From contig NC_134026.1 in the NCBI RefSeq assembly GCF_964204645.1, positions 24,462,150 through 24,526,149 of the forward strand: a stretch of DNA of 64,000 bases, in the 5' to 3' direction. Position 1 is the first letter of the stretch. Every line of letters starts with the position of its first letter. The DNA is from Tubulanus polymorphus (lineage: Eukaryota > Animalia > Nemertea). The position numbers were made by a program, and so were the translations under genes. The notes under the pieces are model-generated. The model searched no databases. It saw nothing but the letters and a program-made list of their open reading frames with translations, and was not told the DNA's origin. Shown one piece after another: positions 8,515 to 56,032 of this stretch.

Positions 8515-10167
8515 CTACTGCTGCTTGCTCGGAGACCCGAAACCTTTCGAAAAGTCGGAAAGCTGTAAGATGGCAGGCGGAAGCGGGAGAACTTTGTTTC
8601 CGTTTCGTTCCGGCGGCCATTTGTATTTGACGCACGATAGTTGCATGTCACCCAACGTCAGTGGATTCATTTCCAATCTACGGTTAAGCCCATGTGGCCA
8701 CAAGCTGTCGTGTTTTAGGATCATATCATTGAAGTCTATATCGAGATATTTTGTTTCTTCGGTAGTCGTGAAATAAAAGTACCAGTCTTCGGCTTTTGTG
8801 CTCAATAGAAGAGCGGCTAGTTGCGGAAAATGGGAACATGCCGTGAGGGAGTCATTTATGCACTGTCGAACAGAGTCTAGAACATTTTCAGACTTGTCCA
8901 CGTACCGTAAATGAGGCATGGTCTTATGTTGGAAACAGAATATCCCCGGATGACCAATGTTTTTGTAAAGTTCAGGCTCATCAATTTCCGGACTCCATAG
9001 TAAACATTTCCTTACGAGAACATCAGTAAGACACGGTAAATTCATTATTCTTCCATTGAATTCATGGATGCCACGCATTATGTCAAGACCCCACCAGCCA
9101 CTTTGCAGCCTCGTATCTATTTTAAGAGCACGCACGTTGTCCTTGTCTTCTCTTTTAAAGATCTGAGCGTAGAAATCAACGATATGCTGTAAATTTGACC
9201 AATCTTCATCAGTGAACGAGTCGTGCCTTGTCTTAATCTCGTTCACCATTTCATACATGCGTCTTACGTCCTTCCCGTATCTTTCCAGGTGTTTATCATC
9301 CGATTCGACGATGAACTGTCGGTATTCGGAATAAGTGAGTCCCGAAAGTCCGGTGATGCGATCCTCACCGATACCATTGCCAGATAAGCTGGATTCCATT
9401 GAATCTATCGTTCGGTTAGCTATAGGTGGCCAGTGCCACTTTTTTGCAGATCTTCGAATTTCTGGAAGTGTCATCGGTGTTAACTGTAAGTTGATATTTC
9501 CACCAAATGGCCATAACGTATGGTGTTTGAAAATAGCCTCGTTATATGCCACGTCGATTGCGCCTTGGTCAGTAAGTGGTTCGAAATAGAACGCCCACTC
9601 ACCTGCCAGAGTCGACAACAGAATTGGCAAAAATGGCTCGAACTCCATTGTCGCACCTAGAGCGCCGTAAATGATTTTCTGACATGCGTCAAGAATATTT
9701 TTACCCTGTCCTACGTAACGAAAACATTGTATATTCTTATGTTGAAACACAAATATACCGGAATGGCTGATTTTTTCCGATTGTTCCATCATGACGTCAC
9801 GAATTTCAAACCATTCCATCTTTTTCAAAACTAAAGTCTGTTTCAACTTTTCGATGTTCATAGTTTTTCCACTTGGGCCATTAAACGATGACTTTTCGTC
9901 GGATCCCCACCATCCGCTGTGAAAACGTAAAAGTTTCATGTAAGTTTCGCGTTCTTGTGCTGTCATGGAAACGCAACGTTCCTTGTGACGTTTGTAGATT
10001 TCTTGGCAGGTCTCCCAATCGCCGACTTCAAAGTTGTCACTTCTTTCAAGAATTGAATTTTCGAGCATTACAGTTGATCTACTTCTCTTTATGCCTGCCT
10101 CTACCGGTTCAGGTGTAGCATGGCCCATTCTACCGAGCTGGGGAACGCTCAAACGATTTGCATCCAT
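8515..10167 (-). CDS. Uncharacterised 550-aa protein with two tandem degenerate GIY-YIG-like modules
   Basis: Uninterrupted 1653-nt ORF. Internal repeat aa ~81-248 and ~353-519 (SGWWG..., GIFxFQHK..RYV(G/D), LLST..(E/D)WxFYF, LWPxGxN, WPP). A splice acceptor (tatttctag) lies just upstream of the ATG, implying a 5'UTR intron. Confidence 0.85.
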   Translation of the reverse strand: MDANRLSVPQLGRMGHATPEPVEAGIKRSRSTVMLENSILERSDNFEVGDWETCQEIYKRHKERCVSMTAQERETYMKLLRFHSGWWGSDEKSSFNGPSGKTMNIEKLKQTLVLKKMEWFEIRDVMMEQSEKISHSGIFVFQHKNIQCFRYVGQGKNILDACQKIIYGALGATMEFEPFLPILLSTLAGEWAFYFEPLTDQGAIDVAYNEAIFKHHTLWPFGGNINLQLTPMTLPEIRRSAKKWHWPPIANRTIDSMESSLSGNGIGEDRITGLSGLTYSEYRQFIVESDDKHLERYGKDVRRMYEMVNEIKTRHDSFTDEDWSNLQHIVDFYAQIFKREDKDNVRALKIDTRLQSGWWGLDIMRGIHEFNGRIMNLPCLTDVLVRKCLLWSPEIDEPELYKNIGHPGIFCFQHKTMPHLRYVDKSENVLDSVRQCINDSLTACSHFPQLAALLLSTKAEDWYFYFTTTEETKYLDIDFNDMILKHDSLWPHGLNRRLEMNPLTLGDMQLSCVKYKWPPERNGNKVLPLPPAILQLSDFSKGFGSPSKQQ

Positions 10168-13100
10168 CTTCGAAATCAGTGCTAGAAATATAAATGAGAT
10201 ACTGGATCAGCAAAATAAGTAATCTGGTATTCTAGCATTCTTTTTTATTCATTTGTTTTAATTGATTAATTTTGATTCTAGTTTATTTGATTTGAATTTT
10301 GGGTTTCCTTACAAACTCACCACACACCGGGAATGCAAACAAAGGGTTTGATTTTGAAATCAAAGTATATACAAATATAGTTGGGTGATCGGTCAAATTT
10401 AGATGATTTTCTCCTAAATCGAAGTAGATGATTAAAAATGTCGGTATTCAGATATTAACCAGATTTAATCTTGAATGTATCCTTAAAATCTGTTCTTCTT
10501 AAGCAATCCTAATTGGCAAACAGCCTCTTCTTATTATCATTAACCACCGCCTAATCTTTAGATTCTATAAGTTTTCAACTTAATTTCAATTTTAAGAAGG
10601 TCACTATAACGAAAGAATAGCTAACTCTATAATACTCTGAAATACATCAACCCATACATCGACAACCAGTATGTAAACATTTTCTATTTCAGCAATAACA
10701 TGAAATTTTCTCTTCATTTAGATAAAAGCTTCGAGACCACTAATAGTACGGATGTAACACGGTTTAATGGATATATATGCAGAATTTCATATAAAAATAC
10801 AAGCCACTAGAATGATAATATGACGAATTGATAACAGTTAATAATTCGCGAATACTATTTCTTTTTAAATGCGATGTTGAAAAATCAAAATAATTACGTA
10901 TACATGTATTGGTATTATCATGGTACGTGCGTGAGCATCTATTTTTCATTATTGAAGAACGCCAGTCCGGATAAACCCCTCTCGATCAATTTATTGCCAT
11001 GTTGTCAATTTCAAAATCACATCCGGACTGAATACGTGTATCAGTACCAGGGAAAATTAATAAATCTGTACAAATCACTATGATGTTTTAAACTAAACCG
11101 CAAATAAACCTGGTAATCCCTGATATAAATAATGACCTGCGTTTATTTATATATGATATCACAAATCATGCATATATTTTCATCTATCCATTTGCCTTAT
11201 ACCTAACGTATATTTGATAACGAAGATACAGTACATAAAATATATATGCGACGTCCTTTTGCTATTCATCTTCATTATCGACGAACAGGCTGTGTTGTCC
11301 AAACGGATTTTTTCTCAATACACACGGAGAAAGTTGCTCTATTATATTGTTTATCAAAGCAAATCTAATTAATCTGATATTGGATGGTTCTGATGCGGAC
11401 ACGGACGCTGGGTCCGCGCTGGTAATCCTGACAAAATGCTTAAAGAAACAATTTCGCCACCAACTTCGCTCCTTACACCGGATTAGTTCCGTTTATACAT
11501 AGGAGTAAGCGAAGCGAATGGGCCGATCATTAACTCGTCTGTGATGCACTCGTATGAGTATTATACATATCATAATGATGCTGTTTCTGGAGGTCCTGTT
11601 ATCCACACTCCTTTCTGTCCCGATTTGACTTTTCTAAACCATTGAGAGTGATTTTCTTGTGCTCGCTGTTGCTCGTATATTATAATATCCACTGGGTTAG
11701 CGATTTTTGATTGTGATATATATTTGAATATGAATGTAACATAATCAAAGCCTGTTGCAATTATATTACCTGAATCACTACAGTTTACCATCAGTCTCTC
11801 CCAATTTTGTTTTAAATCTCCAATTTGTGGTAACCCTTTCTAAATTTTGTTGATGATATAATGGTACTAGCTGAAACGCTTATTTCGGTCATTTTCCCAC
11901 TCCGATCTGTGTAAAGATTGGTATTTCAAAAAAAACTAACGGCGATTTTGAACCCAGCGGCAGATTTTGCTTGGCTTCCTTTCGAAGCGAGTTTTGAGGG
12001 TCTTCGCTAGGAACTCAACTCCTTTGCTTTTGGTTCGTCGCTTGCAATTGAAGGCAATCCAGCGAACAATGGACACGTGTATTTTAACTTCTAAACAAAC
12101 GTCGTTTTCCGTCGCAAATTGCGGCGATTGTCACCAAAGAGCAGATAGCGGCATTGATCGAGTGGCGGAATAAATCGATTATCGACCAATCGATGAGATG
12201 CGGATTTCATCTGATTAGTTTCAGTACAGACGACATATCGGGTTGTTCCTAGTTGTATGAGACTTTTTTCAGTATGACACCGAACATTTGTTATAACATT
12301 CAAATGAAATATTCATAAGAAATGGTTTTTAAACGTATATACATATGTATATATATGTACATATACATTAGAAATTAGAAATCATTGTATAGGAAATTGA
12401 ATATAAAATTGAGCTTAAGAAAGATGAACTTTCATGATATTCATATTGGACACACGGCTGTATTCATCTATTCATTTAATCAATTTTAAGAATTGTACAA
12501 TTGTTTGACCTTATTGCTAGTTTCGAAATTGTCTGATTTCCTTAACCGCATATTCGAGAAATGCAAACATTTCCCTTGTGCCCCAATGATTCGTCTTACA
12601 GTCGTTTTGCTATTTAGTGCTAACGCTGCACGGGGAGCGTTTTACAAATAACTTCCATTTATGACTTATTTAGACACTAATGAAACCACTCTATTTACAC
12701 CGTTCAGCCGGTTCATAACTTTATATCCCAATGTTAACGAAATGATGGATCATTTTTTTGTAAGAAAAACCAAAAGTTAGACTAAGAGCGAATGGAGATC
12801 TCGATTTGAAACCTAACATGTACCGCAAGTCTTATGTTGCAGTTCATATGTTATAAGCCATCTTTAGCTTTTGATTTGAGAAAATTGGCAGCCGGATTAG
12901 ATGGTGAATTCAGGTGCAAACGAACCCTTCGAGTTTGGAAGGGGGCAACCGAAAAGCCCTCGATTCATCCATCTTTTATTAGATTGGCTTCTTTCAGTAT
13001 GTTGAATAATTCAAGCAAAAAAGGGAAGTTCCAAAAAATTAATCAGAGAGGTAAGAAGCACGTTACACCAACCGGTCCCGGACAATATCACTACAGTGCA

Positions 13101-38003: not shown

Positions 38004-40211
38004 GGTGTTGTAAAGACTATTTGAAAATTATCTACTCATACAATGTTCTCAATCAGTGTATGCCATCGTTGCAAACAGGTGTGATCCTTATGAATAAATT
38101 TGATTATTCATTGCGGTCATTCTTCCCCAAAAATGACTTCGCTAAATGATTGACTAGTTCCGATATGGTGGAGCGAAAGTTTATTTAGTTGATTCCGGTT
38201 TCCGCTGCTGCGCTAATGCCATGTCCGACGTGGTAAGTGATAAGGAAATGGGCGGCACCTTCGGTTGACAGCGCGCGCCGCCAGTAAGAGACTGCACGAC
38301 GCAAATCTCAAGAACGCTGGCGTATATTTGAATCAATGAAACAGCACCAGAATTTTATGATGACATTACAATATTGAAAGTGCACAAAGTAAAATGAATT
38401 GATGATTGATCAGTTATAGCTGCTGTTTCAAATAAATGGTACCAAATCAAGATCTGCGAATATCAATTTTCAAATATTTTGAACCAATCATTAAATATCT
38501 GTAAAAGAGGATCGATTGGGATGAAATAAAAATCTCTTGATGGGCCAGTCATGTTCTAGATTTATGACCGACATAATTCATAACGATTTCAGGAAAGTCA
38601 CCAATGAGCAACTGGGCCCATACTTCATTCTAACCGAATCTGATTCATAGATGCCAGTGATCATACTCCAGGACCCCTGCCTATCATTGCTGCATACGTT
38701 TATCACGCAATATCGTGACTTGTTGCACATTTTGCACGTCATGCACTCGAAAAACTGCGCGGTCACAAGATGCAACACAGCATGTGTGTAATGCGATGTC
38801 GGATCCTTTCAGAATTGTTCATTCATCGTCGACTGACGGAACTTCGTTTGCAGTCCATGATATGATAAACTCATGCAATAGTTGAATCAGCATCAAAACT
38901 GAAGGTTTGGTTACAGCCAGAAATATATATGCGTCGGTTTTTAGGATAGTCACAAAACCTAAGTGAACCACCAGACTAGTTTACCAGACGGGGGAATTAC
39001 TACGAATGACTTTTCATCCAACCATCGAAGATAATTCTATCAAGTGGAGGCTTATATGATAGTATATATTCTTGCGACGTCTCGTGTCGCCGCATAATCG
39101 CTATCAATCCAGTCCCTGTGAATTCCATTTGTTTGTCATTAGCCAGTTTCTACTCGTGTGCACAATTCTTCTCGGGTGATTGCAAATAATGTTTTCCGTA
39201 ACTCGAAACAAACAGTTGCTTTGCCCTGCTAATTAAGTATCATTTCAGAGCTCGGGTAGCGACCGTAAATCTACGACATATTTTGTGCTTTCGCCTGAGT
39301 TGATGCTTCAAAAGCGCCGATCATTCAGACTCAATAACGTATGTGACCAGCGTAGAATTCCAATAGACTCGTGCTCGCACCGTGCAGCTGCCGCCATTTC
39401 GATATAGCAATTACCAGTTTCCCTGATTGGCATTTGTGCATGTGTGATCGCTTTCAGGATCCATCCATGCGTCCCGTATAAAAACGGGTCGAATGTCGGG
39501 TTATTGCTGCTATACCGAGCTAGATTCCCCCTTAATCCTGCTGCCAGAAGGAAGGACGTGATTCAGTTAGCGGTGTATATTCTTTATTTTATGGCGATGT
39601 CCACTTACCATCGGCCACTGAATCGTTTTGGCGCGCGTAACGTTACAACAGTAAGCTTATTAAGAGTTTATCCTTTTTTGTAAAGATATGATCGCTTCGA
39701 ATTTCTAATGTTCGATTGACGGGATTATTGTGTCATTTGCGCGATAAGGGCAATAAATCGATTTATGATTTGTCGGAACTTCATGCAAACAAACAAGAAA
39801 AACAGCTGGGAGAAATTTACTTCGTAGATAGTTCAATTTATCCATAAGGATGTTAGTTTTTAAGATTAGGATATCAGTAGAGAGGTCCGTTGACAGGTAA
39901 AAAACCGGTGTTTGACTTTTATCATCAAACTGATGCCGATGATTGAAACACTGCTACATAGCGAATGATTTTACATCCAGCAATCGACACAACGCCAATA
40001 TTTCTATGAGACAACTATAAAGTCGATATCATCTCACAATGACGACGAAGAGTAACTCTTAAGTACTCGTATGTCAAGAAAATTGGAGCTTCTCAATGGT
40101 TGGACAGCTGTTTCGATTCTCACATATCCAAGCAGATTTAGCACCGTCATAGTTGGCAGGCGCTCCATTTCAAAACCATTTGAATCCTTAAGTTATCATA
40201 TCCAAAAAAAT

Positions 40212-40283
40212 AAGAATATAATGTAAAATGTATTGACAAACACCTCAAGAGGTGTTTGTCAATACATTTTACATTATATTCTT
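40212..40283. repeat. Perfect palindrome: 35-bp arms, 2-nt spacer
   Basis: aagaatataatgtaaaatgtattgacaaacacctc-aa-gaggtgtttgtcaatacattttacattatattctt. Confidence 0.97.
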
Positions 40284-40900
40284 GTGGTGTGGCTCTTCTA
40301 CAAGATTGTGAAGATATTCTCGGCGATGAAGTGATTTACGCCGACTGGTGTTCGAAGAATATTTCATTGGACATTGCGATTTATGAATAAGCAGATTTTC
40401 TGCTAACGCCTGATTAACGTGAATGAAGGATATAGGATCGCGCTCAATGTGTCGTTTCTTTAAGACCCTTTTCGCTGAAACTTCGCTAAAACCAATTCCC
40501 AATTTAGACATAAAGAATTTAGTCATAAAGAATTTAGAAACTTTGATTAAAAACTGCAAATTTTCAGTTAGCTAAATTCACCCAAAAAAGAGTTTTGTGT
40601 TTTGAATTTATTTTTGCGCCGTTATCTACTTTTGTGCATTTAAATTTGTGTATGCGTGTTTTCGTGGAAGATGATGAAAACAACCGTGGCCCGAATCAGT
40701 CGCTCCATTCTGTTTTAAGTGTTTCTAGAGACCTCTCGACGTCGGCTCCATCTACTGTAAAATATTAAGTAATAAATGTGATATTTCAGCTTGTAACGAC
40801 TGCCATCTTAATCATGTTAACTTCAATTTCCTCCTCCTTATTAAGAATCGCACTATTCAATATATAAACAGTACTATTCGTCGAATGAGGAGAGTTTTAG

Positions 40901-40951
40901 TATGGAATTCCTCAAGGGCCATACGAGTAACGATTTACGAATTACGAGTTA
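40901..40951 (+). mobile_element. Solo terminal fragment of the foldback-like element
   Basis: TATGGAATTCCTCAAGGGCCATACGA.., identical to the start of the arm at 41208, followed by TTACGA units. Confidence 0.8.
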
Positions 40952-41209
40952 TCTACCATCTCCGGCTACATAATCAATTATTATCTAGAGATATCATCAA
41001 CACGATCTCTACTAGATTTTGGTTAGATATAATAAAATTTGTAATCAGTTCCTGCCGGGTCTTTTATAGGGTTATGGTATAAATTGATCAGGATTTTAAA
41101 AACAGTGTAGGCCTACAGGCCCGGTAGCCGTAGGAGCCCGTCAGTCAATAGAGGGAGACATAGCACCGATCCTTTGAAATTCTGCCAAAGACTTCTTTAC
41201 CATTCATTA

Positions 41210-42069
41210 TGGAATTCCTCAAGGGCCATACGACTTACGAGTTACGTTTTACGACTTACGAGTTACGTTTTACGAGTTACGATTTACGTTTTACGAGTTA
41301 CTTATACATTTCCTTGAATATTCGTTACGACTTCCGTTTTATGAGTTACGAATTACAACTTAAATACGTTTTACGAATTACGAGTTACGATTTACGAGTT
41401 AAGTGTTGGAGTTTCGGTTTGCAAGAGTTCAAGGACAGTGGCCACGTGGTAGGCCATTTCACTGTGTGGGTGTAATTATTAGACGAATAACTGTAACGAT
41501 GATGGATTGCTGTATGCGGCCCAGTGTTTTCAAAAAATAAATACATTTTTTCTAAATTGATGAATCTTGTTCTAATTATCAAAATCATTTCCAGCTAAGA
41601 TCTATTGAAATATCGTCTATTAAAATCATCGTGCACGTAACGGGGCAGTCATCAGTCAGTGTGAAATGTATTGTCAGCATTTAATAGATTTTGAGAAGGT
41701 TCGCACCAGATGGCCAACGCGCAAATTTTCTGTCCTGTAATAGACCACTGCAGTCGAGATTGATTCACTATGTACAATAAATTACTCTTATTATGCTGTT
41801 TGAAATGACAATTCGACTTCATTTTGAAACCCGTTCTTTGAATTATGCGCTTCGGATATCCGAAGCCAGTTAGTGAAAAACGTGTAATTCGTAAAACGTA
41901 AGTCGTAAATCGTAAGTCGTAACGTATTGTAGGAAATGTATTAGTAACTCGTAAAACGTAAATCGTAACTCGTAAAACGGAAGTCGTAACGAATATTCAA
42001 GGAAATGTATAAGTAACTCGTAAAACGTAAATCGTAACTCGTAAGTCGTATGGCCCTTGAGGTATTCCA
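41210..42069. mobile_element. Foldback-like non-autonomous DNA element with ~190-bp modular inverted arms, flanked by TA
   Basis: Left arm TGGAATTCCTCAAGGGCCATACGA + (TTACGAG/TTACGTT/TTACGAT)n at 41210-41400; the reverse-complement arm is at ~41881-42069; TA lies on both sides. Confidence 0.85.
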
Positions 42070-42487
42070 TAATTATTCAATAATTCGGCCTGAATATCTC
42101 GCGGATTACACAAAAAATACTGCCGTGGATACCCTGATTTGAATATTCTCGGAGCTACCCTTTGTATTCGTCGGTACAGAAGAGACCTGCAAGTGGAGCC
42201 GGAAATTGCGGGAATGGCATTAATGGCGGTGTTATTGAAGCAGGTATAACTGTATGCCGTTTTACGGCATGCAGCCCCAATTAGCGGCCCCAGGGATCTT
42301 AACTGGATGGGTATTGTTCGTTAACGTCCCTGAGGATATTGAATGGTCATATCTGACATACTTACAGCCCTTTAGGGTAAATTGATTAATTATATTTCTA
42401 TGAGTAAATGTGGCTTTAAACGAACCAAAAAAGTCAAAATTCAGCAAAATATCCCTCCGGATTGTTGATTTAATCAGATAAATTTTT

Positions 42488-43767
42488 ACAACCCTGGGAA
42501 CTTTGACTGGACATTATCTGGCATATTTACATACCTGGGGCTGATATCTGCATTAACAACCCTAGGGACCTTAACTGGACATTATCTGGCATATTAACAT
42601 CCCCAGGGCTGATATCTGCATTAACAACCCTGGGGACCTTAACTGGACATTATCTGGCATATTAACATCCCTGAAGTTGATATTTACATTAACAACCCTA
42701 GGGACCTTACCTGGACATTATCTGGTATATTTACATCCCTGGGGGTTGATATTTACATTAACAACCCTGGGGACCTTAACTGGACATTATCTGGCATATT
42801 AACATCCCTGAAGTTGATATTTACATTAACAACCCTGGGGACCTTAACTGGACATTATCTGGCATATTAACATCCCTGAAGTTGATATTTACATTAACAA
42901 CCCTGGGGACCTTACCTGGACATTATCTGGTATATTTACATCCCTGGGGGTTGATATTTACATTAACAATTCTGGGGACCTTAACTGGACATTATCTGGC
43001 ATATTAACATCCCTGGGGTTGATATCTGCATTAACAACCCTGGGGACCTTAACTGGACATTATCTGGCATATTAACATCCCTGAAGTTGATATTTACATT
43101 AACAACCCTGGGGACCTTAAATGAACATTATCTGGCATATTTACATCCCTGAAGTTGATATTTATATTAACAACCCTGGGGACCTTAAATGAACATTATC
43201 TGGCATATTTACATCCCTGGGGGTTGATATTTACATTAACAACCCTGGGACCTTAAATGGACATTATCTGGCATATTAACATCCCTGAAGTTGATATTTA
43301 CATTAACAACCCTGGGGACCTTAACTGGACATTATCTGGCATATTAACATCCCTGAAGTTGATATTTACATTAACAACCCTGGGGACCTTACCTGGACAT
43401 TATCTGGTATATTTACATCCCTGGGGGTTGATATTTACATTAACAACCCTGGGGACCTTAACTGGACATTATCTGGCATATTAACATCCCTGAAGTTGAT
43501 ATTTACATTAACAACCCTGGGGACCTTACCTGGACATTATCTGGTATATTTACATCCCTGGGGGTTGATATTTACATTAACAACCCTGGGACCTTAAATG
43601 GACATTATCTGGCATTTTTACATCCCTGAAGTTGATATTTATATTAACAACCCTGGGGACCTTAAATGAACATTATCTGGCATATTTACATCCCTGAAGT
43701 TGATATCTGCATTAACAACCCTGGGGACCTTAACTGGACATTATCTGGCATATTAACATCCCTGGGG
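42488..43767 (+). repeat. Minisatellite, ~68-69-bp unit, ~19 copies, subterminal in the transposon
   Basis: Unit acaaccctggggaccttaactggacattatctggcatattaacatccctgaagttgatatttacatta with variants. Confidence 0.97.
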
Positions 43768-44020
43768 ATAGCTGACATCCTCTAACCATTCGTCCATCCA
43801 TCAACTTTCGATTCAAATTGCACCACGAGTCAGTATATCCATAAAAACATAGAAAATATCTCCTTTCACCAAAAAATACAGTAAACCTTGACCGACCAAC
43901 TTGAACTTAATAAGTGCAAGTCTGAATGAGTTGGTAATGTTTTACAATCCAATGTAAGAGAAAAACGATTACAGTATAAAATATATTTCGAATTGTCTAT
44001 TCACAAAATACAAAACATTA

Positions 44021-44673
44021 TTACAGTGCACAAATTGGACAAACACCTCTTCTCAATCGGCAACTTCCTTTACCCCTCTTGATACACTGCCTGTGCAGCC
44101 AAAAGAATTCACACCTCTCACATCCTTCCTTAAAAAGAGATAATCCAATAATCTGATCAGAGTATGGTAATAATAATATAAGTGATTATTAACAGCTTTT
44201 TTGTATCTCTTACCCAGAGAATTCTTTTGTGTTTGTCATCAGCTGGTTCCTTTTGGCCACACAACCGGCATACCATTTTTAGTATTTCTGTATCTATAGA
44301 AATATATATATTGTTCATTTCATTTATTTCAGATGTATCTTGACCACCAACAAGTTGCGCTTTGATCTACTGATAGAAGAGTACCTACCGCATACACCAT
44401 GGAGAATTTCCAGCACTTGTTCTTGCATAGATTCGATTCCAGAACTAGCTGATTCAAAATCCTCTAGCGAGGTTTCGCATATTAGACCTTCAGCGAACTG
44501 AAAGAAGAGAATTTCAGGTAATGCGAAGACCTATAAATTAAAGAAACTATCAGTGATTATTTTGAAGGAGTTATTGAATTTTTTTTGCTACTCACAGCAA
44601 GGCATAGAAGTCCACATGACGTGCTATCCTGCTGCTTAGTATGTGGAATTGTCCTGATTTTCCATTTGTTTCG
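44021..44673 (-). pseudogene. 3' part of the transposon gene: Ulp1/C48 protease C-terminus + PHD finger (exons ~44596-44673, 44389-44497, 44214-44293, 44021-44128)
   Basis: WKIRTIPHTKQQDSTSCGLLCLA|FAE matches the Ulp1 Q..CG catalytic motif. Spliced in frame to CRLC...W|EGCERCEFFWLHRQC...CPIC* (C4-H-C3 PHD). The catalytic His/Asp region is absent and the frame is disconnected from the 5' part. Confidence 0.75.
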
Positions 44674-46004
44674 GTCAAAATTCAGCAAAATATCCCTCCG
44701 GATTGTTGATTTAATCAGGCCACCATGTAGGTCTATTCGTGTCATGGCCCCATATTGATCGACTTTTTTTTCCTTCTGAAAATAACATAAGAATTTGTAA
44801 TAGAATGTATGATTTAACCTTACTTGGATCAGCCTCCCAGAATTCTGCCAAAATCATCTAATTAAAGAAAAAGTCCTCCCTGTTTTCATCACAATTTTTC
44901 AAAAGTAATAAATTTTTTTGTCATGTACGTCTCGGTTTGCAATCTAGCAACTTGTAAAAATTTATGTTCATCTCAATGTTCAATCTTGTAATTTTCAAAA
45001 AAAGTTTTTTCATTTCTCCCATTATTTGAATCAAATTCATCACAATTTTCACTCCTTTTTTATTTTTTTCTGCAGTCCTTCTGAGGTTTAATGTAGGAAA
45101 TACTCAAAATAATTCTAAAAAACTTTTTAAAAAAAATTTTTTCCCTGTTTTCTTCCAGTTTAAAGCACATATTATCAAATATTCCCTTAGCCCTCCCACT
45201 ATTTCGTGAAAAATTCTGAACTCCGACTAATAAAAAAGGCCTTAGTGTTAACTCACCAGCTCCGACGATAATTCTTGAGACCAAAGCTCTTAGAGTATGA
45301 TTCCCTTGGGCGTCAATTTCTTCATATGCATGGTCCTTCAATGAAACTTTACTCCATAACGCTTCTCCATCTGAATTTTCATCCGTAGATTTTTTTAGGG
45401 ACGCTACTACCACTTTTAAGAACTCCGACTTAAGTACGGAATTTTGTGTTGCCGTCTGAAGTGCAGGGATGTCTAAAAAGAAAAAAAATATTTGCTGAAT
45501 TATGATCACTTGATTGTCACCAAGTCATGTGGTTCCATACATGTATTTATCAAGAAAAATTATCCTGTGAATTGTCAGATATGAGAATCATATATATTCG
45601 TTAAACAAGTATTTGAAACAATAAACATGTTTGGTACTTGCTTGAAACAATATCTACAGACCCCTTGTTATATTGAAGTAAAACCATTGCTGGCAAGTTC
45701 TTTTCTGATTTTATCTGAAAAATGTTATAATCATATGAAAATCTCGTAGGCCCTTTCATTTACTTTTGAATATATTATGAAAACATGATTCTTGTATGAT
45801 CTGTTCTTATAAAAGTAATTTTGTTTTCACCTTTTTAGTTATTCTTGCAAACCTTTTTCTTTCATTACACCTCAACTTCTGTAGAGAGGTCAGCTTGCGT
45901 TTAACAGTCTGAAGATGAGAATAATGCATGACCGTTACAAATTTATCAAAAACATATTTAACTACTGGTATAAGATAAGGGGTAGTAGATAAAACCCCTG
46001 GGTT

Positions 46005-47250
46005 GAAATCCTTTGAAGTAGGTAAAAATCTCTACTTGGTATTTTCAATCACATATCAAAAAAAAGATGATTCTCCAATTCTATTAGCTTGCAATAAAAC
46101 TGCAATATATCCAAACAGTGCAATAAACTCTTTCGATAGATTCTTAAATAAATAATTAGAACTGTGCGATTAACACTGAAACCAATTTTTCAGTTTCCTG
46201 CAAGATAAAGGGTTATGCTATGTGAACTTTTTTTTACCTGACTTACCTGTGAGGCGATTGTAGGAAAAAATACCACCAGTGAAAATGACAGTAGGAAAAA
46301 AATGCCATAGACATTCAGAATATAATTACTGCTTACGAATTTGATTTTAACTAACAATAGAGTAATAATTTTTGATTAACTTTTAATTTTTGATTTAAGT
46401 AATGTTCATAGTATGCCACAAACTAAAGAAATTTTAAGTGGAGAAACTTAGGGGTACTAAAATACAGCGCCAAATACAATAGCAGGTTTGAAATTCAATA
46501 GAAAGAGATCATTGATAAAATGACTGATAATTAATGCAGTCAACTCGAATACATATGTTCATAACAACTGAGTTCTTTTTCCTACTATACAAAAAGTGAC
46601 ATTTTTTCCTATGTTGCAAAATTTGGTGGCAATAGATATTGCCAACACAAGTTCTAGGGATTGTCCAAAGCAATGCAAGTATTATGTGAAAGTATTATGT
46701 AATTATGTGAAATTACCTACATTACCAAGTTAGCAAGGCTAGACTGGATCATTTTTTCAAACTCAAAAATCTTTTTTCAAGGACTGTGTTTTAGAAGTAT
46801 TTGTCATTTTTCATTAACTAAGAATTAACAAACACCCATAGAAATGATTCTAGCTGTCTTAATATCCATGATATCATAAAAGTGTGTAAGCAAACTTCTA
46901 TGACAATACAGACCATGAGCTTCACCTGGCCTTGCAATCCTATTGTCCTGTTGTTAACATGAACAATTGCCATGCAGTTGTGGTCCCACTAATTATTTAA
47001 GTATTGGCTGGATTCCTTACAATTAAGATAATGAAGTTGAACTAAGTAAATATTAACAGCTTTACTTAATGGGGAGCCACAACTCTGGAAATCGAAATTG
47101 TAAAAATCCATAATATGATCAATAATTTATTATGCTAGCTTGATTTCAAAATATTTAATAATTAATTCTAATAATTCATCGCATCGCACAGTTAAAAATA
47201 CTACAAGTAAAAAATTGCCAAGAGTTGATTTTTACCTACTTTGAAGATTT
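46005..47250. mobile_element. Possible nested element defined by inverted AGTAGGTAAAAATC ends, enclosing a second inverted pair GTAGGAAAAA/TTTTTCCTAC
   Basis: aaatcctttgaagtaggtaaaaatctctacttgg (~46006-46039) pairs with ccaagagttgatttttacctactttgaagattt (~47218-47250); a third copy lies at ~49391. Inner repeats at 46260-46307 and 46576-46612. Confidence 0.45.
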
Positions 47251-47425
47251 TGAGATGATTATTGTACCATTTGAATGAAAAGGTACTGCAAATCAATAGT
47301 TCATTAATACTAAGTTAATACTTAAAGTTACCGCACAGCTCAAATTTATCACGAGTTGAAGAAAATTCATCACACAGTTTAAATAGATTACACTAGCTAA
47401 ATAGATTACACAACTGTTTAAAAAA

Positions 47426-47467
47426 ACACCTGACGATGATCTCTAGGTTGAGATCGAAACGTTGTGT
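47426..47467 (+). ncRNA. Minimal type I hammerhead ribozyme (Penelope-like element pLTR remnant)
   Basis: ACAC-CTGACGA-T-GATCTC-taggtt-GAGATC-GAAACGTT-GTGT: stem I, intact core, perfect 6-bp stem II, palindromic stem III; AATAAA and a T-rich tract follow. Confidence 0.8.
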
Positions 47468-48067
47468 ATTCTATATATTTTAGATTGAATAAATAAATTC
47501 TTGTTTTTAAATTCTTTTAATCTGTAAGTAGTGGGTTTTTATCTTATTATACGTTCACCACATTTGAGTGTGGTTATCGTTCTATCAAAATATTTCAATT
47601 TTGAATTTTGAAATATTACATAAGTTCATTAATTCCATCAATTTAACAATTTATTTAATTCTGAGAATTAAAAGTTAAAAAAACACGAATTGGAGAAATA
47701 TATTTAAATAATTGCTGACCAAAATGGATCATTCGATGATTCCAAAAATGTATTTTAGTGCAAATCCTATTTTTAGAATAGCCTACATGAAAATCTGAAA
47801 ATACGTATGGATGCCCTTGATTTTGAAAATGACGGATGTCACTGCTTTAAAAAAATGTTCTGTCACTTACCGTATTCGTGAATGATTGTTCATCAGACAT
47901 CGTGTACTTTGTTTTGTCAATTCCTATATGTATATTTATCTCTTCCAGGTTGGTTGATCTAATAATAAGCGGGTTATGATCCTCAGCACCCAGAAGTATA
48001 TTTATATGCAGAGCCTCCGAAAATACCCGTGAAAGGATACTAATTAACGCTCTCAAAAACATGGCAT

Positions 48068-48450
48068 GGCATTTATGATAAGGTTTAATTCAGGTGGCTG
48101 CTAGTTACTGATGGAATTTAATTACTGGCTAGGAAGCAGTTGTTAATTAATTATTTCTACCTGTTTCAGCTGCTTATTTTGTAAAGCGTCACCATTAATT
48201 TGATATTATAAGTCAGACCACTTGACAGAATGAAGTAGAATTGTACATTGTAATTACTTTGGCATTTATAAGGTTTAATTCAGGTGGCTGCTAGTTATTG
48301 ATAGAATTAAATTACTGGCTAGGAAGCAGTTGTTAATTAATTATTTCTACCCGTTTAAGCTGCTTATTTTGTAAAGTGTCACCATTAATTTGACATTATA
48401 AGTCAGACCACTTGACAGAATGAAGTAGAATTGTACAATGTAATTACTTT
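48068..48450 (+). repeat. Tandem duplication, two copies of ~190 bp
   Basis: ggcatttat..aaggtttaattcaggtggctgctag...tgtaattacttt at 48068-48260 and 48261-48450. Confidence 0.92.
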
Positions 48451-48732
48451 GTATGGACAAGAATAATACAAATGTATCAAAATTATGATGAAATCTGTAA
48501 TAAAGAGATATATATTTAAATTTTGAGTTGATCATTTGTTTAATTTTTATATTTTCCCTACTTAAAAAAAAATACAAGTTCTGAATGCTAAATTTCAAGC
48601 TAATTATTCACAAGATTAAGATTACAGGCTAACCATTTAGAAAGATGATGAGCTGTTTTGGAACAGTTGTTGGTAGTGGGAGCCATTGAGCTTTGGTGAA
48701 CAGGGCCTGCCTTATTTTGCAACCAAGATCAG

Positions 48733-48854
48733 GGGCCAGTTGCACAGTCGTGACTTAAGTCCAAAAGTGGTCTTAAATCTTAAGACTTAAGTTGTTAGAT
48801 TGGCTATAGAACTCAGTTGGTCTTAAATCTAAGTCATGACTATGCAACCGGCCC
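48733..48854. mobile_element. PIF/Harbinger-type MITE
   Basis: TIRs GGGCCAGTTGCACAGTCGTGACTTA / TAAGTCATGACTATGCAACCGGCCC with CAG on both sides (3-bp CWG TSD). Confidence 0.8.
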
Positions 48855-48900
48855 CAGGAGCCTAATATTGTATTCATCTAATATTCCTAAACGTGAGAAC

Positions 48901-49010
48901 TCCCACCAAAATAATTCAGCCAAAAAGAGAATTTGTATATATTTAATCAATGTGTCTATTATATACTGTTCTATTCAAGAATTCTTTTTGGCTGAATTAT
49001 TTTGGTGGGA
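48901..49010. mobile_element. MITE-like hairpin with perfect 28-bp inverted repeats
   Basis: tcccaccaaaataattcagccaaaaaga ... tctttttggctgaattattttggtggga. Confidence 0.75.
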
Positions 49011-49980
49011 TTTCTTTTGTTCATTTATTGTACACTATGGATGTTGTGTTTCTTCTTGACTAATGTGATAGTCCTATCACAGCTGCATTACTTAGGGGGG
49101 TATTTAATTACCATATTTGTCTACCAATGACTACTTACAAGTCCCCATTTAATTGTTCTTTAAATAAACACTAAGGAAATCAGAGAAACAGATTTTGGAA
49201 TGGTAGACCAGTTTCGAGAGACACTCATAAAAATAATTAAAGAAATTGTGTATCAAAGACATTATGATCATAATTTATTTACAATTACAAATTATATATA
49301 AGTTGAATTTGCACAAAAATGTTAACTTCAATAAATGAACAGAGAAAAGCCCTATAATAAATCACTACTGGTTTTGAAACAAAGACTAATGAAAGTAGGT
49401 AAATATCAACTCCTGGTAAAAATCCCTCAGTTCTCTGTATAAAGCCCAAATGAAAATAGATAATTATTATGTACATAGATATTTTACTATAACTTTCGGA
49501 CCTAATTTTTTAACAGAAATTTTAACAAAAACTACTAACAATATTATTTTTATGCATGTTACTTGCTTAAAGTCACAGAGTAATGTCATTTCATGACCAT
49601 AGCTTGGTAAAAGTCACACATTGTCAAAGAAAAACACCACGGAAAATTTGAAATTTTTGAAAACTACATATATATTTAAGTTTTTCAACAAGAATATTGA
49701 CGAATTTTATTTAAATTTGCTGTGAAACCAAGTTTTGGGTACTTTCACCGGGTGGGATTATCTGTTACCCATTCTAATAACATTCTAATAACATTCTTTA
49801 ACATCCATGGTTCAGACATCTGCAAAATACAAATCATGTCCATATAGAGTATCACAAGGAAAAAATGTTAGAATATGAAATAAATTTAGGATAAATTCTA
49901 AAGAAATGCATTCAAATTATTACACTGGATAAAGAATAATGAGACGAGTAGTACTGTATAGGTTAACTATTTATTTGACG

Positions 49981-50021
49981 CACAAGCTTTCGATTCTAAT
50001 GAATAAAAGCTTCATCAGGTG
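49981..50021 (-). ncRNA. Minimal hammerhead ribozyme (Penelope-like remnant), stem II partly decayed
   Basis: Minus strand CAC-CTGATGA-agcttttattcattagaatc-GAAAGCTT-GTG followed by AATAAA. Confidence 0.6.
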
Positions 50022-51828
50022 AATGAGTATAGTCAATGGAAAAACAACAGTATTTATAGGTAGAGACACCAATTACAGAGAACTGAGTGAGAAGAGTTAT
50101 TACAAATAAATGATGAGTGAAATAATTAATAACTAAGTGAGTGAGTAGATAATTAATTAATTAAGGAACAACAAACTAAAACAAATCAAAGAGAAATAGG
50201 TCTAAATCAAAATGAAACTATATCAAAGTAAAATAAACAGATGGTATCTAAGAGCAACGAATAACAAGAAATGGAAGTCCGAGATAAGTCGAGATACAAT
50301 GAATAACAAACGAAATAAAAACTGTAGTGGGACATGAATCCTAGGTAGATCGCGATTGAGGCCAAGATTGATTGAAGGATTGACACCTTGATAAAGAGTA
50401 AGACAACTGCACAAGGGCAATTAATCATAACATAGCCATCAGGACCAAGTTCCACAGTTGTTAGTTTAGGATTTGACTGAATCTATCAATGTTTTTGGGA
50501 TATTTCGCTAAATGTTTTGAACGCATGCCTCGAATTTGGTCTTCATACGACCAGTAAAACTGTGCAGCCTCAATGAACCATCGTTTTTTATCCATTTTAC
50601 ACTGTAGGCCTATTGAAGCATTGCCAAAGTCTTCATTTTCTCATGTTGGAATGAGAAAAGATCAGTTATTTAAGTCTCTTACCTCCGATTGAAATGATTT
50701 ACAGAAGACTTTTTAGCAATCAGTTTTAGCAATCCTTCAATACATAGTGTTTTTTAAATGGATAAAATTAAAAACGATGCGATGATGGCACAAGTTTCAC
50801 TGGTCGTAGGCCTATTACAATCGCCTAAGACTAAGACCAAATTGAGGTGCGAGTGTTCAGAAGATTTTTAAGAGAAATGTCCCAAAAAGATCAATTTCAG
50901 AAAAAAAAAATTTACAACTGACTCAGTGACTTGTGCCCGTGGAACTGGATCGGAGAAATGTGGCTCACCTTTTTTGCCGGCCGCTTGCGATCCGAAGTAC
51001 TGACCAACGAAACCTTAAACTAAAAAGTTTACTTAAAGAATAAGTAAGAAGGCCCTCTTCGTAGTAATAAGTTCACCAACTTTTGATAGTCTAGTCCAGT
51101 GGCAGTAGTGAGACGAATTTAAACGAAATAAGACGGACGAGTAGAGTAACTGAGCAGTCCGTATATCTGTTAACTGATAAATCTATGCAAGCTCGAAAAA
51201 TGTAGGTCCGTACGCTAGGGATTTTAAAATTCGAATGCGTAATAGGCCTAATTTGTATTGAATTGAATTGGAGCATACGCTGCTGCGATTGGTCAATTGT
51301 GGTCACGTGAGGTCTGTACTGAGGGTCGCTAGACGGGGCTGTATGCCATAAAATGGCGTCTGTAAATACCTCATTGAAGTGATAGATTTTTCAGTAATTA
51401 AATTCGGCGAATCGAAGCGAATGCGCGACTGTCCAGTGGTTTCAAGTGTTACTGCTCGACCAATTCTGAATGTAGGTACAATTCTTTTAACCTGTCTTCA
51501 TGGTCTGGAGTTAAAAATTATTTTCGATACTGATTGATGCTGTCGGACGTGGCTCTTCTGCTATCGCACACTTCTTTTTCGCACTTTCCTTCGGCAACCA
51601 ATCATCATCAATCCACACTACAGTACTATGTATATAGTACCTTGGATATTGGATGATCTAAGCTACAGTTCACCCCCAAGGCCAAACTTCAAATATGAGC
51701 CCCTGTGCATCAATCATTCGATTCAGCATGCGTTCGCATGATTGAGCGAGGTGAATGATATAAATATAAGTTAAAAAGTTGTCTCATACTATGTGTTTTC
51801 AGGCACGTTTTGTCATTGTTGGATAAAC

Positions 51829-53407
51829 ATGTCCCATAAAAATAAGAATAACTCTGCATCTGCTAATCATCGTTTGGAAGGAAATTCTCATTATGTGGAG
51901 GCACTTCGAAATGGAATCAATCCCTCAGTATCTGAGGTACGGTTACAGAAAGCCATCAACTGTTACTATCTAGCTGAACAGACATCCAATACTGATGAAG
52001 AAAAGGCTTCCGCGTCAAAAAACTATGCCATGGCTTCCTGGAAAATAGCTCATGTGAAATGGGCAAGAGGTGAAAAGATTATACTTGTAACGCACAATTT
52101 CAAAGAAGCCATAGATTATTTCATGCGGGCCCAGAGAGCTGGTAATTCCAAGAACTTGACTTGGTGGCAAAAATTAGAGGCATCAATCACCGAATGTTTA
52201 GACGCAGTTTTCGAATATCTCCTAGCAAATTACAGCAAAGGACAAGAACGTGGACGTCAGTTGGAAACATTTGCTCGTTTACTTCCGGATGGCATTTCGA
52301 AGGCTAAATGTTACTTAGAAATTGCGCGAGGTTTTTTCCACCAAGGAATTGAAGACATCAGTAATGGGATTTATGTGACCGCTTTATCATTGATGAAGGA
52401 GTGTTATTACCCGATAGAAGAGGCTGCTCGGCTCGGTAGGCATGACGTGGAATTGAGTTCTGATGTAAGAATACAAAGGGAAGATGTTTTCAATAATCAG
52501 TGCATTGCTGAATCCATGCAGTCAAGGCAACAAGGTATGTATACAACAGTTCGAACTTACTGAATTATTTTCCTTGCAGATAATCAATTTTACAGAGATA
52601 ATTGTTTTAGGGGATGATATGTACAAGGTGCTACTGATGGACACTGAAGAGTTAAGCATGGATCTGGCGTGGAATGTGATAGATTGCTATACTCAAGCTA
52701 TTGTGCAAACCAGAAATATGTCTGTAAGATCTGGGGTTTGAAAATTTGTACTTGTAATCAAGACTTTAAGACTGAAAAATCTGTTGTTTCAGATTGAAAA
52801 TGAGGCAGCTGCTCTGAGTCGATTGGGGCGAGTTTATTCCGTCGTTCTGAAAATGAAACACAAGGCTAAAGACTTGTTCCAGAAATCCATAGAGCTCGCG
52901 TTAACAATGGTGCCTTGTTCCCCAGAGAGAGAAGGTATGTTGTCAACTAAGATGAGAACTTGAACTCTGCCTTCAAACCTATTCTTGACAATAACATGAT
53001 ACAGGCATATTTTTTTTGTAGAATGGTTTCAAGAAGCCAAAGCTTTTGTTTCTAAATACCAACTTGAAAAACAAGAAGAGGAGAACAAGAAATGGGAAAA
53101 CCTGCGTAAACCATTCAGAGATGAGATTGATGCAGAGATAAGAAAACTTGATGAACTCGCAAATAAACGCGATGAAAAGAAATTACTTTCGTACATTTAC
53201 AAGACATATCCGCCGAAAGACAAAGGTGTTGTTGTGCTTCCCTCTGGTGAGAATTGGGATATGTCAACAAGTAAGAAGGCAATTACAAAAGCATTGATAC
53301 ATTACCATCCGGATAAAATTGATATGGAGAAATTCGGAATTAAATGGAAAGTTATTTGCGAAGAAATAACTAAGGTTTTAAATAATCGATTTACGTGTTA
53401 CAAGTAA
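51829..53407 (+). CDS. TPR-like helical-repeat protein with C-terminal J-domain-like HPD motif (exons 51829-52534, 52611-52723, 52793-52934, 53022-53407)
   Basis: In-frame GT-AG splicing. TPR-like helices (RLEGNSHY..LQKAINCYYLA; EAAALSRLGRVY..AKDLFQKSIELA). C-terminus KKAITKALIHYHPDKID..EEITKVLNNRF. Confidence 0.85.
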
Positions 53408-56032
53408 AAGCCAGTTCAGTATCATGTGTTTTAATTTTTACGGAGTTTTTATTGTTTTATCGTTTTCTAATCAATATATCGATTAAGATTCTAAATGCTT
53501 TGATTGCTGTTTATTTGACCGTGATATATTCTTAAATTGCTGGAATAGCGATTAGTTTTAATTACATAGCTCTTTACTACAATTTTAAATACTATTCTTG
53601 TGCATGTGAACCATTATTAATTTTGGCTCAATTATTATATAACGCAATATTCATTCATCATAATGTCTACATTCTACTCTATTCTACTACTGTCATACTA
53701 TTTTGCTGATCGTATACTCTGGTGTTATTTCTTATCTCGTATTGGTGCATTAAAACAGTATTATCCGCATTAATAATTGTGTAATTCAAATATTTTATGC
53801 ATGTTCATTAGAAAAGAATAGGAAAAATTTGTCCAGACTAGTGAAAATATATATCTGGTCATGAAAATAAATTAAGACATAAAGTTCATTTCTTATGGTA
53901 AAGGAATATATTCATTTCTGAAAGCAATCAAGACCCTAGACATAATTGGTAGGATAAGAAGTGTTTTAATGCAAATGTAGTAATAAAAACGCATCTTGCC
54001 CATCCACACATTCAATGTCTTCATTGCAAATATTCCCTTTCAATAAACAAAATGCCCTTGAATGTGCCACAAGACCAAAGGAAGGCATTGAATCTATCCT
54101 TGAAACACCACCGACCAACATCGACTGGATTTAACAAAGACAATGGTGGTTGATGGCAGTGCCCATAAAAGGAGTATTTGTTTTGTTTATATCTGCATCC
54201 TCTTGCGAAACCACTAAATCAAATACGTGTAAAACTGTCATCAACATGAGAAGATTTGTATGGCCAACATCCCATCAAGACGCTCCCGGTTTGAGCATAA
54301 GTCTAATCATAACATGTTGTATCCAGCAAACTCGACCAGAAGTAACTAAATAACAAGTGGATTAAAATAGTGCAATTTTTATATTCAGATAATTTTTGGG
54401 ACATGTAGCTGAAGGTCTAACTACAGGCAAAGATGTACATTTGATACATGTATAAACATACTATTTAAATTCATCTATACATATATTTCAAATAAAATAT
54501 TTTCCAATGGAACAAACTCCACAAAATTTCTTAGTAATTGCCATATAATAATGCCTTATATGTAAACATATATTACCATTATATCATTTATATCAAGGTA
54601 TTAGGGTAATTATCAACTATATAACTTAAAAATATGAGTTCACTGAAATATCTTATTGCAAATATGTTTGACAATATATTATGATTTACAGATCTACAAT
54701 TTTTATTCATTAAGAGTTTACAAATATTGCATGACTCAATTATTTGAAGACTGCAAGTTATTCTTTAACTAAACAACTGTTGCTAAGGTGGGTTTGAAAA
54801 TATACGATAAAAATCTTTGTACTATGTACAATTCCAACTTTTCAACGCTGATTTCGTAACAAGGAACATGTTTAAGAATAATCGAAACTGTACATAATAT
54901 ATGATATACTTCCAAAAGTAAACTTGTGGTCATTCAAATCAGATGAATCTTATGAATACAGAAACATGGGATGACCTTCGACGCTTCAATGTTCTCAAAT
55001 AAAATTTTAGACCGATATAAACGAAATTGAAAAAGTATAAAAATTCTGTTAAATACCGTAGTGCTGATCCCCAACAATACAACTCCATAGAATTTCAAAG
55101 AGTTTTTCATTAGCAACCTATTAGAATATCTGTAGTTCCAGTGAAATTCTGCAATTTTCTTAGGTTTTTTGCCTAGGCAAAAAAGCTAACCAATATGAAA
55201 ATAAGCCATTGAAGTTCTTGTGCATTAAAGATCTAATATCTATGTTCACCACACTAATGGATTGAAATGTAAAATGGCACCTGTTTGTGAACATTCTGTA
55301 CTCAGATACAATGTATATGGATATACACTTTATATAATCATTTTCGCCAACCATTACTGAACATTTCTTTATTCATCAACATATTGAATCAAACATCAGT
55401 TATTTCCATGAACATCAGTTATCTTTGCCAGTCAAATGAAGAAGTCAATACAACATTTATCGGACAGCTTCAGATTTTCTTTATGCATCTACAAGAGGGA
55501 CAGATATGCAAGATATGTGTACACAAAATAACGTTTTGATGTCTACTTCAAACCTCGTAAAACCATACTGCACTGGTCATGAATGATGAATTCGATGAGG
55601 TGCAGATGAAACTAGTAACCAACAACGGCGTCTGCCCTAAACATCAATTCAACATCCTACAGTGTTTCTTAGAAAAACAAAATCCTGAATCAGGTGACAC
55701 CGGAATCAAATATCGACAAATGAACTAATTTCAACTGGAGTTGGGTCTAATCATCAAAATTGCAGTGAAGCTAAAAAATGCATAACTCTGACATGATGCA
55801 TGCACAACAGTTTCAGAAAAATTTTCAAATATTTCGACAGAAAATGAAGTAACATGGAACGAAGTACCAAGTATTCAAACATATGAAAAATTCAGATGTA
55901 ACGATTTTTAAAAACGCACATTTTACATGCACAAATATTGAGCACAAGTATTTTTTGTAACAAATCACAAAATATATAATGATATTAAAATACACAGTAA
56001 CACTGTAAATATAATTTGATTGTACAGTGATG

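Follow-up and report, generated by a model that had tools for sequence, protein, structure and literature searches.

A transposon with terminal inverted repeats, an unusual domain set and likely motif-guided target choice in the nemertean Tubulanus polymorphus

Insertion directed by sequence is rare among eukaryotic DNA transposons, and Pokey, some CryptonV families and Dada are the cases named (Kojima 2022, PMC8869645). Dada elements are described as making target-site duplications (TSDs) of 6-7 bp and as having no terminal inverted repeats (TIRs), with subterminal inverted repeats that are echoed in the target (PMC3706591, PMC8869645). Kyakuja elements are reported to make 7-bp TSDs and to lack TIRs, their ends being CA..TG; TSDs are 8 bp long in Zisupton and Dileera and 7 bp in hAT7 (PMC12730594), and KDZ elements of Cryptococcus have TIRs and 4-8-bp TSDs (bioRxiv 10.1101/2025.05.19.654958). 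Zisupton genes are multi-exonic (PMC9297572), and transposases of Ginger1 and Mutator can carry a C-terminal Ulp1 plus PHD (PMC2836005). Here we compare with these systems an element located at 42241-51372 of a 64,000-nt stretch of the Tubulanus polymorphus genome (contig NC_134026.1, positions 24,462,150 to 24,526,149; hereafter, the window), which is a TIR cut-and-paste transposon with an unusual domain set and a target choice that is likely motif-guided.

In the reading that we favour, and hold to be probable if far from certain, the element exists as several near-identical TIR-bounded copies that have lost their transposase by internal deletion, and an ATGGC motif would be read both in the target and in the element ends. 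The TIRs show the degree of identity given in a first-pass annotation of the same DNA, with 27 of 38 outer positions identical and 35 of 53 over the longer span, and nowhere in the window does the left 38 nt have a better inverted match than the right end (27 positions), the next ones reaching 22 (a self-palindrome) and 20. The flanking ATTGAAG duplication, also proposed earlier, is exact on both sides (42234-42240 and 51373-51379), an agreement that a given 7-mer would show by chance at about 1e-4. The termini of this copy are CA..TC, the left end reading CAGG and the right end GAGG with mismatched terminal bases. A TSD of 8 bp was rejected, the left border being fixed at 42241; since it needs two anomalies, a mismatched eighth base (T vs C) and asymmetric ends, 7 bp is the simplest reading.

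Further copies were assessed in public sequencing runs of the same organism, five of the ten listed runs containing the stretch or part of it; the best-matching run may be the assembly's own source, and run X6 consists of raw DNA reads from another study. Six unitigs of run X1 are listed within the element; their depths are 117-137, with 0-2 differences over 571-827 nt, and the right flank has a depth of 44. At the left end the junction-crossing unitig (42133-42270) has a depth of 34, and another unitig, of depth 109, starts exactly at 42241. The same border is found in X6, where depth at 42241 rises from 2-3 to about 26, and 14 reads carry a different sequence before that base. These extra flanks at the same left border, together with the raised internal depth, agree with the earlier assignment of the locus to a TIR DNA transposon with other copies, and X1 holds about three near-identical copies, contig depth not being a copy number. 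The near-identity of the copies makes it probable that this species has an intact parent. Since an X1 unitig of depth 126 begins inside a miniature inverted-repeat transposable element (MITE) nested in the element, the copies are likely to have multiplied after that insertion. A search with the TIR pattern gave one match in metagenomes, none in viral contigs and two in prokaryote genomes; the three matches were dismissed, as their context is unrelated and they look like chance.

A further observation, new with respect to the first-pass annotation, is a motif at fixed distance from the element. ATGGCGG, which resembles a YY1 site, has its first base at 42223, 18 nt ahead of the element and outside both the element and the TSD, and ATGGC stands at exactly 18 nt before the TIR in all four left-flank read-outs shown, the window included. 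Flank (a) comes from six X6 reads that agree with the window from about 42223, a start point deduced from bin depths, to the end of ATGGCGG, after which four differences precede the TIR. Flank (b), the consensus of 14 loose X6 reads (AATGGCGGCG), has ATGGC 18 nt ahead of the junction, and flank (c), a diverged X3 contig (AAAATGGCCG) with five other letters and a TIR apparently 2 nt shorter, has it 18 nt ahead of its CAGG; the offsets of (b) and (c) were counted by hand from printed 30-letter rows. The flanks are otherwise unrelated apart from the motif, and the target is therefore not a repeat. ATGGC occurs in the window at a frequency of 7.2e-4 per site, and the chance of three further matches at one offset is about 1e-8 allowing 25 offsets, or about 1e-5, calculated by hand, when flank (a) is left aside. 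The target motif looks one-sided in the right flank examined, that of the window, where ATGGC is absent at the mirror position. Each TIR carries an inverted pair of AYGGCR half-sites, and in both cases the member that points outwards begins 20 nt inside the end. Target choice thus looks motif-guided, either via the element's own protein or via host YY1.

The second of these routes, in which YY1 (Pho), bound both to AAAATGGCG in the right TIR and to the promoter motif, would tether the transposase at a fixed distance, leaving the NRF1-like piece with another job or none, seems to us unlikely. It would explain why the target read-outs and the right TIR fit the YY1 consensus beyond the 5-mer, and the host does have such sites, since a neighbouring gene carries the motif at 39397, overlapping its apparent start codon. 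Human start sites, in addition, are reported to have an excess of YY1 motifs shortly downstream (PMC8384218). Against it, the left TIR has ACGGCA instead of ATGGCG and one flank reads ATGGCC, both poor fits to YY1, and the base-exact spacing and the echo of the end motif in the target better suit a direct reading by the transposase, as has been speculated for Dada.

As to where the element landed, a host open reading frame (ORF) starts at 51829, about 450 nt beyond the element and behind an acceptor at 51801-51802; because of this position, and because the motif overlaps a neighbour's start codon, an insertion in a 5' untranslated region (5'-UTR) or promoter is plausible. The host ORF looks like a tetratricopeptide repeat (TPR) protein by eye and has no Pfam match. 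A spliced X5 contig covers this plus-strand gene (51803-53414), and its first 121 letters would fit a first exon that spans the insertion site or starts in the right TIR. An argument from a CpG-island promoter was dropped, the window not being CpG-depleted and the site having 17-18 CpG per 300 nt (about the 90th percentile). An Rfam scan of 39000-54000 found no small RNA gene at the target, and a Dada-type target (tRNA, snRNA, 5S) was rejected on the same scan.

The element had been read as carrying a spliced gene of nine minus-strand exons with GT/GC-AG borders, encoding NRF1-like, Ulp1 and PHD segments. Exons E5-E9 do have canonical AG/GT borders and compatible phases, and all borders used are GT-AG, but the minus-strand exons are predicted from the sequence and those at the 5' side are predictions only. 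The motifs LRALV, WG..P.WWP, QQD..CG and PHD are likewise all present but not in one reading frame, and an intact spliced gene is not supported. The NRF1-like frame stops directly after WWPD, and a phase-compatible 5' model (E3, E4, E5 from the acceptor at 45455, and E6) gives a 140-codon frame with the same WWPD-stop end, whereas QQD..CG, E7 and the C4HC3 PHD (E8-E9) lie in a different frame, open to the stop at 44021. The frame changes at 44718, where a 45-bp segment begins that is identical (100%) to 42433-42477 and resembles the 68-bp subterminal tandem unit, and the same junction is found in contigs of X1, X2 and X3. In Ds and P derivatives, abortive gap repair is known to leave filler DNA, copied from another part of the element, where a deletion was joined, and the frame break at the copied 45 bp points to a deletion. 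We read the predicted gene as the product of a deletion that joined two parts, with filler DNA between them and a break in the frame, and this deletion likely removed the transposase. None was visible to the earlier annotation, and we too found no transposase family among the 122 stop-to-stop ORFs of at least 30 aa in 43780-51372, which gave two unrelated matches below cut-off. ORF scans also led us to reject a plus-strand transposase gene inside the element.

A pack-type element, with exons captured from one or two host genes (NRF1-like; Ulp1/PHD) in place of a transposase gene of its own, would account for the missing transposase remnant in these 122 ORFs and for two halves in different frames with filler between them. 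We consider this improbable, since the gene, all on one strand, begins close to one TIR and reaches the subterminal array of the other, since Ulp1 followed by PHD is described as a known transposase tail (PMC2836005), and since E5 has no relative among 1.84 billion representative proteins, unlike a conserved host gene; the one match found there, a repetitive hypothetical protein, was judged spurious.

Two side observations concern transcription within the element. In X2, a contig with a depth of 749, compared with 10-21 for the other contigs of that run in this region, joins 42314-42376 to sequence matching 44333, skipping a plus-strand GT..AG stretch, as in an apparent spliced antisense transcript from the left end of the element. 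A second hint of antisense splicing comes from X5 contigs (47946-48339) that begin next to the AG at 47947-47948, a strong acceptor on the plus strand, and are preceded by 116 letters of different sequence.

The domains were searched with single-exon pieces. For the truncated NRF1-like piece, PF10491 was the only Pfam match (E 0.12; 12.6 bits vs a gathering cut-off of 23.5), recovered in a second Pfam scan with E 0.59, and human NRF1 (8k3d) was the third of three matches in the PDB (E 3.1). In the Atlas, the two best named clusters carry PF10491 (0.84 and 0.78, at lead level only). WG..P.WWP aligns to positions 140-166 of the PF10491 profile and to 45-61 of 8k3d. The N-terminal piece thus points weakly but repeatedly to an NRF1 domain; PF10491, 8k3d and the Atlas converge, at low scores, on the NRF1/EWG-like segment named earlier, which is cut off after WWPD and stays below curated cut-offs. 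The PHD finger, in agreement with its earlier description as complete, has all its C4HC3 zinc ligands at the proper spacing across E8-E9 (C8, C11, C29, C32, H38, C41, C56 and C59), and its best PDB match is the BPTF PHD (E 0.64). The catalytic core of Ulp1/Peptidase_C48 has the order His-Asp-Gln-Cys, and the remnant retains the Gln..Cys part only, as a C-terminal piece of the domain; the QQD..CG motif reported before is present, but the sole Pfam match of this piece is Peptidase_C39 (E 0.074). In the remaining single-exon protein searches, one gave 101 candidates, none with E <=1, and two others gave none. PDB searches with pieces of E5 and the Ulp1 piece had no relevant match, the Atlas search with E5 was uninformative (recognition below threshold), no relatives of E5 were seen in viral contigs, and its single-sequence fold had a predicted local distance difference test (pLDDT) score of 58.

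Kyakuja/KDZ-like is our best guess for the superfamily, although we would not give it an even chance; some other or undescribed superfamily is somewhat less likely, hAT with a 7-bp TSD is unlikely, and P is the least likely. The length of the TSD had been taken to separate the element from KDZ, which does not hold, because Kyakuja, a KDZ group, makes 7-bp TSDs, as does hAT7 (PMC12730594). With Kyakuja the element shares the 7-bp TSD (in the one copy here) and the CA start, Kyakuja-2_LB beginning with CAGGG, but the ends are TG there vs TC in this copy, and no NRF1-like domain or target motif is described for Kyakuja in the text available from that source (PMC12730594). The KDZ transposase domain (PF18758), accompanied by CxC domains in autonomous elements, is also absent from this copy. 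Zisupton elements carry Ulp1; they and Dileera differ by the 8-bp TSD, the eighth base here being T vs C. MULE TSDs are longer than 7 bp, and P elements have TSDs of 7-8 bp and a CA start, which agrees with the 7-bp TSD and CA start present here, but the retained N-terminal exons have no THAP match and point weakly to Nrf1_DNA-bind. In the hAT superfamily, CAGG-like starts and Ds deletion derivatives with filler DNA are known, and the animal hATw elements have a 7-bp TSD. The element resembles hAT (hAT7 in fungi) in combining a 7-bp TSD with TIRs and in its subterminal repeats, but no remnant of a hAT domain (BED finger, dimerisation) was found in the 122 ORFs, and in the part of the hAT literature covered neither the NRF1-like/Ulp1/PHD architecture nor a one-sided motif outside the TSD is described. 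No TSD data for hATw were found in the literature retrieved (PMC12905397, in the text available). Ginger1 and Mutator share with it the C-terminal order of Ulp1 then PHD and the introns, but Ginger1 is reported to have 4-bp CCGG/CCGT TSDs and TGT termini (PMC2836005) and GingerRoot mostly 6-bp TSDs with TA..TA or TG..CA termini (PMC6839031), which differ from those seen here. The WG..P.WWP segment resembles the NRF1/EWG DNA-binding domain (PF10491, 8k3d), from which the element differs in the cut after WWPD, the score below the Pfam cut-off and the lack of a detectable match for the upstream exon.

For the targeting logic, Dada is the closest precedent, though not a family match. Common to both are a TSD of similar length (6-7 bp in Dada), site-directed insertion and short subterminal inverted repeats that recur in the target at a set distance from the TSD, but Dada is described as targeting multicopy small RNA genes and as having no TIRs, whereas here TIRs are present, the flanks are non-homologous apart from the motif, and the spacing is 18 vs 20.

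It is possible, although we do not expect it, that the element is an ordinary non-autonomous member of a family catalogued in Repbase or Dfam (animal Kyakuja/Zisupton, hATw, 7-bp hAT or P), for which the architecture and target preference are known; this would be compatible with the reading that we favour. Groups with 7-bp TSDs do exist, namely Kyakuja and hAT7 (PMC12730594) and hAT families labelled '7-bp TSD' in Repbase (PMC4455052), and Ulp1 and PHD are common add-ons (PMC2836005). On the other hand, no description of NRF1 combined with Ulp1, PHD and TIRs was found in the literature searched, a search that stood apart from Repbase and Dfam, which may already list the family, and what was found on YY1 and target-site preference concerns murine leukaemia virus (MLV) and piggyBac vectors.

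Returning to a motif-reading element that lost its transposase, the parent would encode one multi-exon protein with, in this order, an NRF1-like domain, the catalytic core, Ulp1 and PHD. A gap-repair deletion would have fused WWP to the Ulp1 tail via filler DNA, and the deleted copy would be mobilised in trans by an intact relative, by cut-and-paste with a 7-bp staggered cut. A DNA-binding domain, most likely the NRF1-like one, would hold both ends of the element at their AYGGCR half-sites, 20 nt in, and the same domain would bind the ATGGC site in the target, setting position and orientation; this binding of ATGGC by an NRF1-type domain is our proposal. ATGGCG belongs to the YY1-type motifs found near the starts of genes, so that promoters and 5'-UTRs would receive the insertions, perhaps with the assistance of the PHD through promoter histone marks.

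Several points weigh against this reading. The length of the TSD comes from one copy, the right terminal base is mismatched between the TIRs, and the fungal Kyakuja members (Kyakuja-1_LB and Kyakuja-2_LB) are described as having no TIRs, vs 53-bp imperfect TIRs here (PMC12730594). The motif count covers left flanks in four read-outs, among the loose ends listed, beside which stand 22 further rows; flank (a) was picked up through its likeness to the flank of the window, and the consensus of flank (b) has an agreement of 0.64 and likely mixes at least two flanks. The spacing is unequal, 18 nt in the target vs 20 nt in the element ends, and NRF1's own binding site differs from ATGGC. All domain matches are below curated cut-offs, E5 alone found no NRF1 protein in protein and PDB searches, the Ulp1-like piece does not match Peptidase_C48 (PF02902), and no relative carrying a transposase was found in the single-exon protein searches. 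The number of copies is drawn from contig depth, and no empty allele was seen in X1, where the junction unitig is unbroken, nor an empty site in X6, among the rows listed and with just 2-3 reads on the flank.

The features of the locus are collected in Table 1. The nested MITE at 48732..48855 is presumably Harbinger-like. Two high-copy nested repeat fragments (47426-47549 and 49930-50400), which we assume to be Penelope- or retrozyme-like, have hammerhead-like cores by eye, and the Rfam scan of 39000-54000 gave no hammerhead match in them. The introns of the element also hold a 190-bp tandem duplication (96%) and a hairpin with 44-bp arms (48078-48451 and 48896-49015). Some 170 bp left of the insertion lies a separate high-copy MITE-like element (41206-42073), with long inverted arms of short tandem repeats and a partial arm copy near 40900. 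A 35-bp motif at 42126-42163, 80 bp before the target motif, has many different flanks, with >100 X6 reads loose on each side, and is either a dispersed short repeat or a shared promoter element. Elsewhere in the window there are ordinary host genes, namely a KLF-type zinc-finger ORF recognised by eye (4148-5272, plus strand), an amino-acid transporter (PF01490; 28012-29295, minus strand) and a muniscin with a mu-homology domain (PF10291; 56036-58772, minus strand), and a 563-codon single ORF (8518-10206, minus strand) with apparently two diverged internal repeats and no Pfam match.

Table 1. Features of the element and its insertion site, in window coordinates (TRF, Tandem Repeats Finder).
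Feature	Position	Strand	Basis or remark
Target-side motif ATGGCGG, YY1-like	42223..42229	+	same offset in three other flank read-outs
Left TSD copy ATTGAAG	42234..42240	+	exact match
Left TIR, starts CAGG	42241..42293	+	X1 unitig begins exactly at 42241; 14 X6 reads loose before 42241
Left TIR half-sites, inverted AYGGCR pair	42254-42270	+	sequence
45-bp 3' subterminal segment, likely filler donor	42433..42477	-	identical to 44674-44718
68-bp tandem array, 18.7 copies (TRF)	42488..43764	.	related to subterminal motif 42280-42307
Exon E9, second PHD half and stop codon	44021..44128	-	best PDB match BPTF PHD, E 0.64
Exon E8, first CxxC of PHD	44214..44293	-	border and phase check
Exon E7, end of Ulp1-like domain and linker	44389..44497	-	phase check
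Exon E6 3' part, Ulp1-like C-terminal remnant (W..QQDSTSCG)	44596..44673	-	motif by eye
45-bp filler at inferred deletion junction, site of frame break	44674..44718	-	identity to 42433-42477
Exon E6 5' part, NRF1-like WG..P.WWP, cut off	44719..44775	-	PF10491 matches
Exon E5, ends with LRALV, in frame with E6	45257..45472	-	acceptor 45472 or 45455
Nested high-copy repeat fragment in intron	47426..47549	.	depth and loose ends
Predicted exon E4	47871..47958	-	phase-compatible model alone
Nested high-copy MITE in intron, GGGCC ends, likely CAG duplication	48732..48855	.	depth and sequence
Predicted exon E3, possible start codon	49749..49819	-	phase-compatible model alone
Two predicted non-coding 5' exons	50683..51100	-	donor motifs alone (after 50969 and 50683)
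Right TIR, reads GAGG from the end	51320..51372	-	sequence
Right TIR half-sites, inverted ATGGCR pair	51343-51359	-	outer one starts 20 nt from terminus
Right TSD copy ATTGAAG	51373..51379	+	exact match

An intact parent would settle both the superfamily and whether NRF1-type domains serve transposases. More tentatively, and with clearly less confidence than in the motif-reading, deleted element itself, we suggest that it may belong to an undescribed animal TIR lineage in which an NRF1/EWG-type domain selects ATGGC(G) targets, at YY1 sites of RNA polymerase II promoters and 5'-UTRs, inserting in a fixed orientation 18 nt downstream, with the PHD reading promoter chromatin. If true, insertion at a constant 18 nt downstream of a promoter-type motif that the family also has in its own ends would represent a new targeting mode at ordinary gene starts, and the element would be a eukaryotic cut-and-paste transposon guided by the motif of a transcription factor, as well as a candidate mobile origin for NRF1-type factors.

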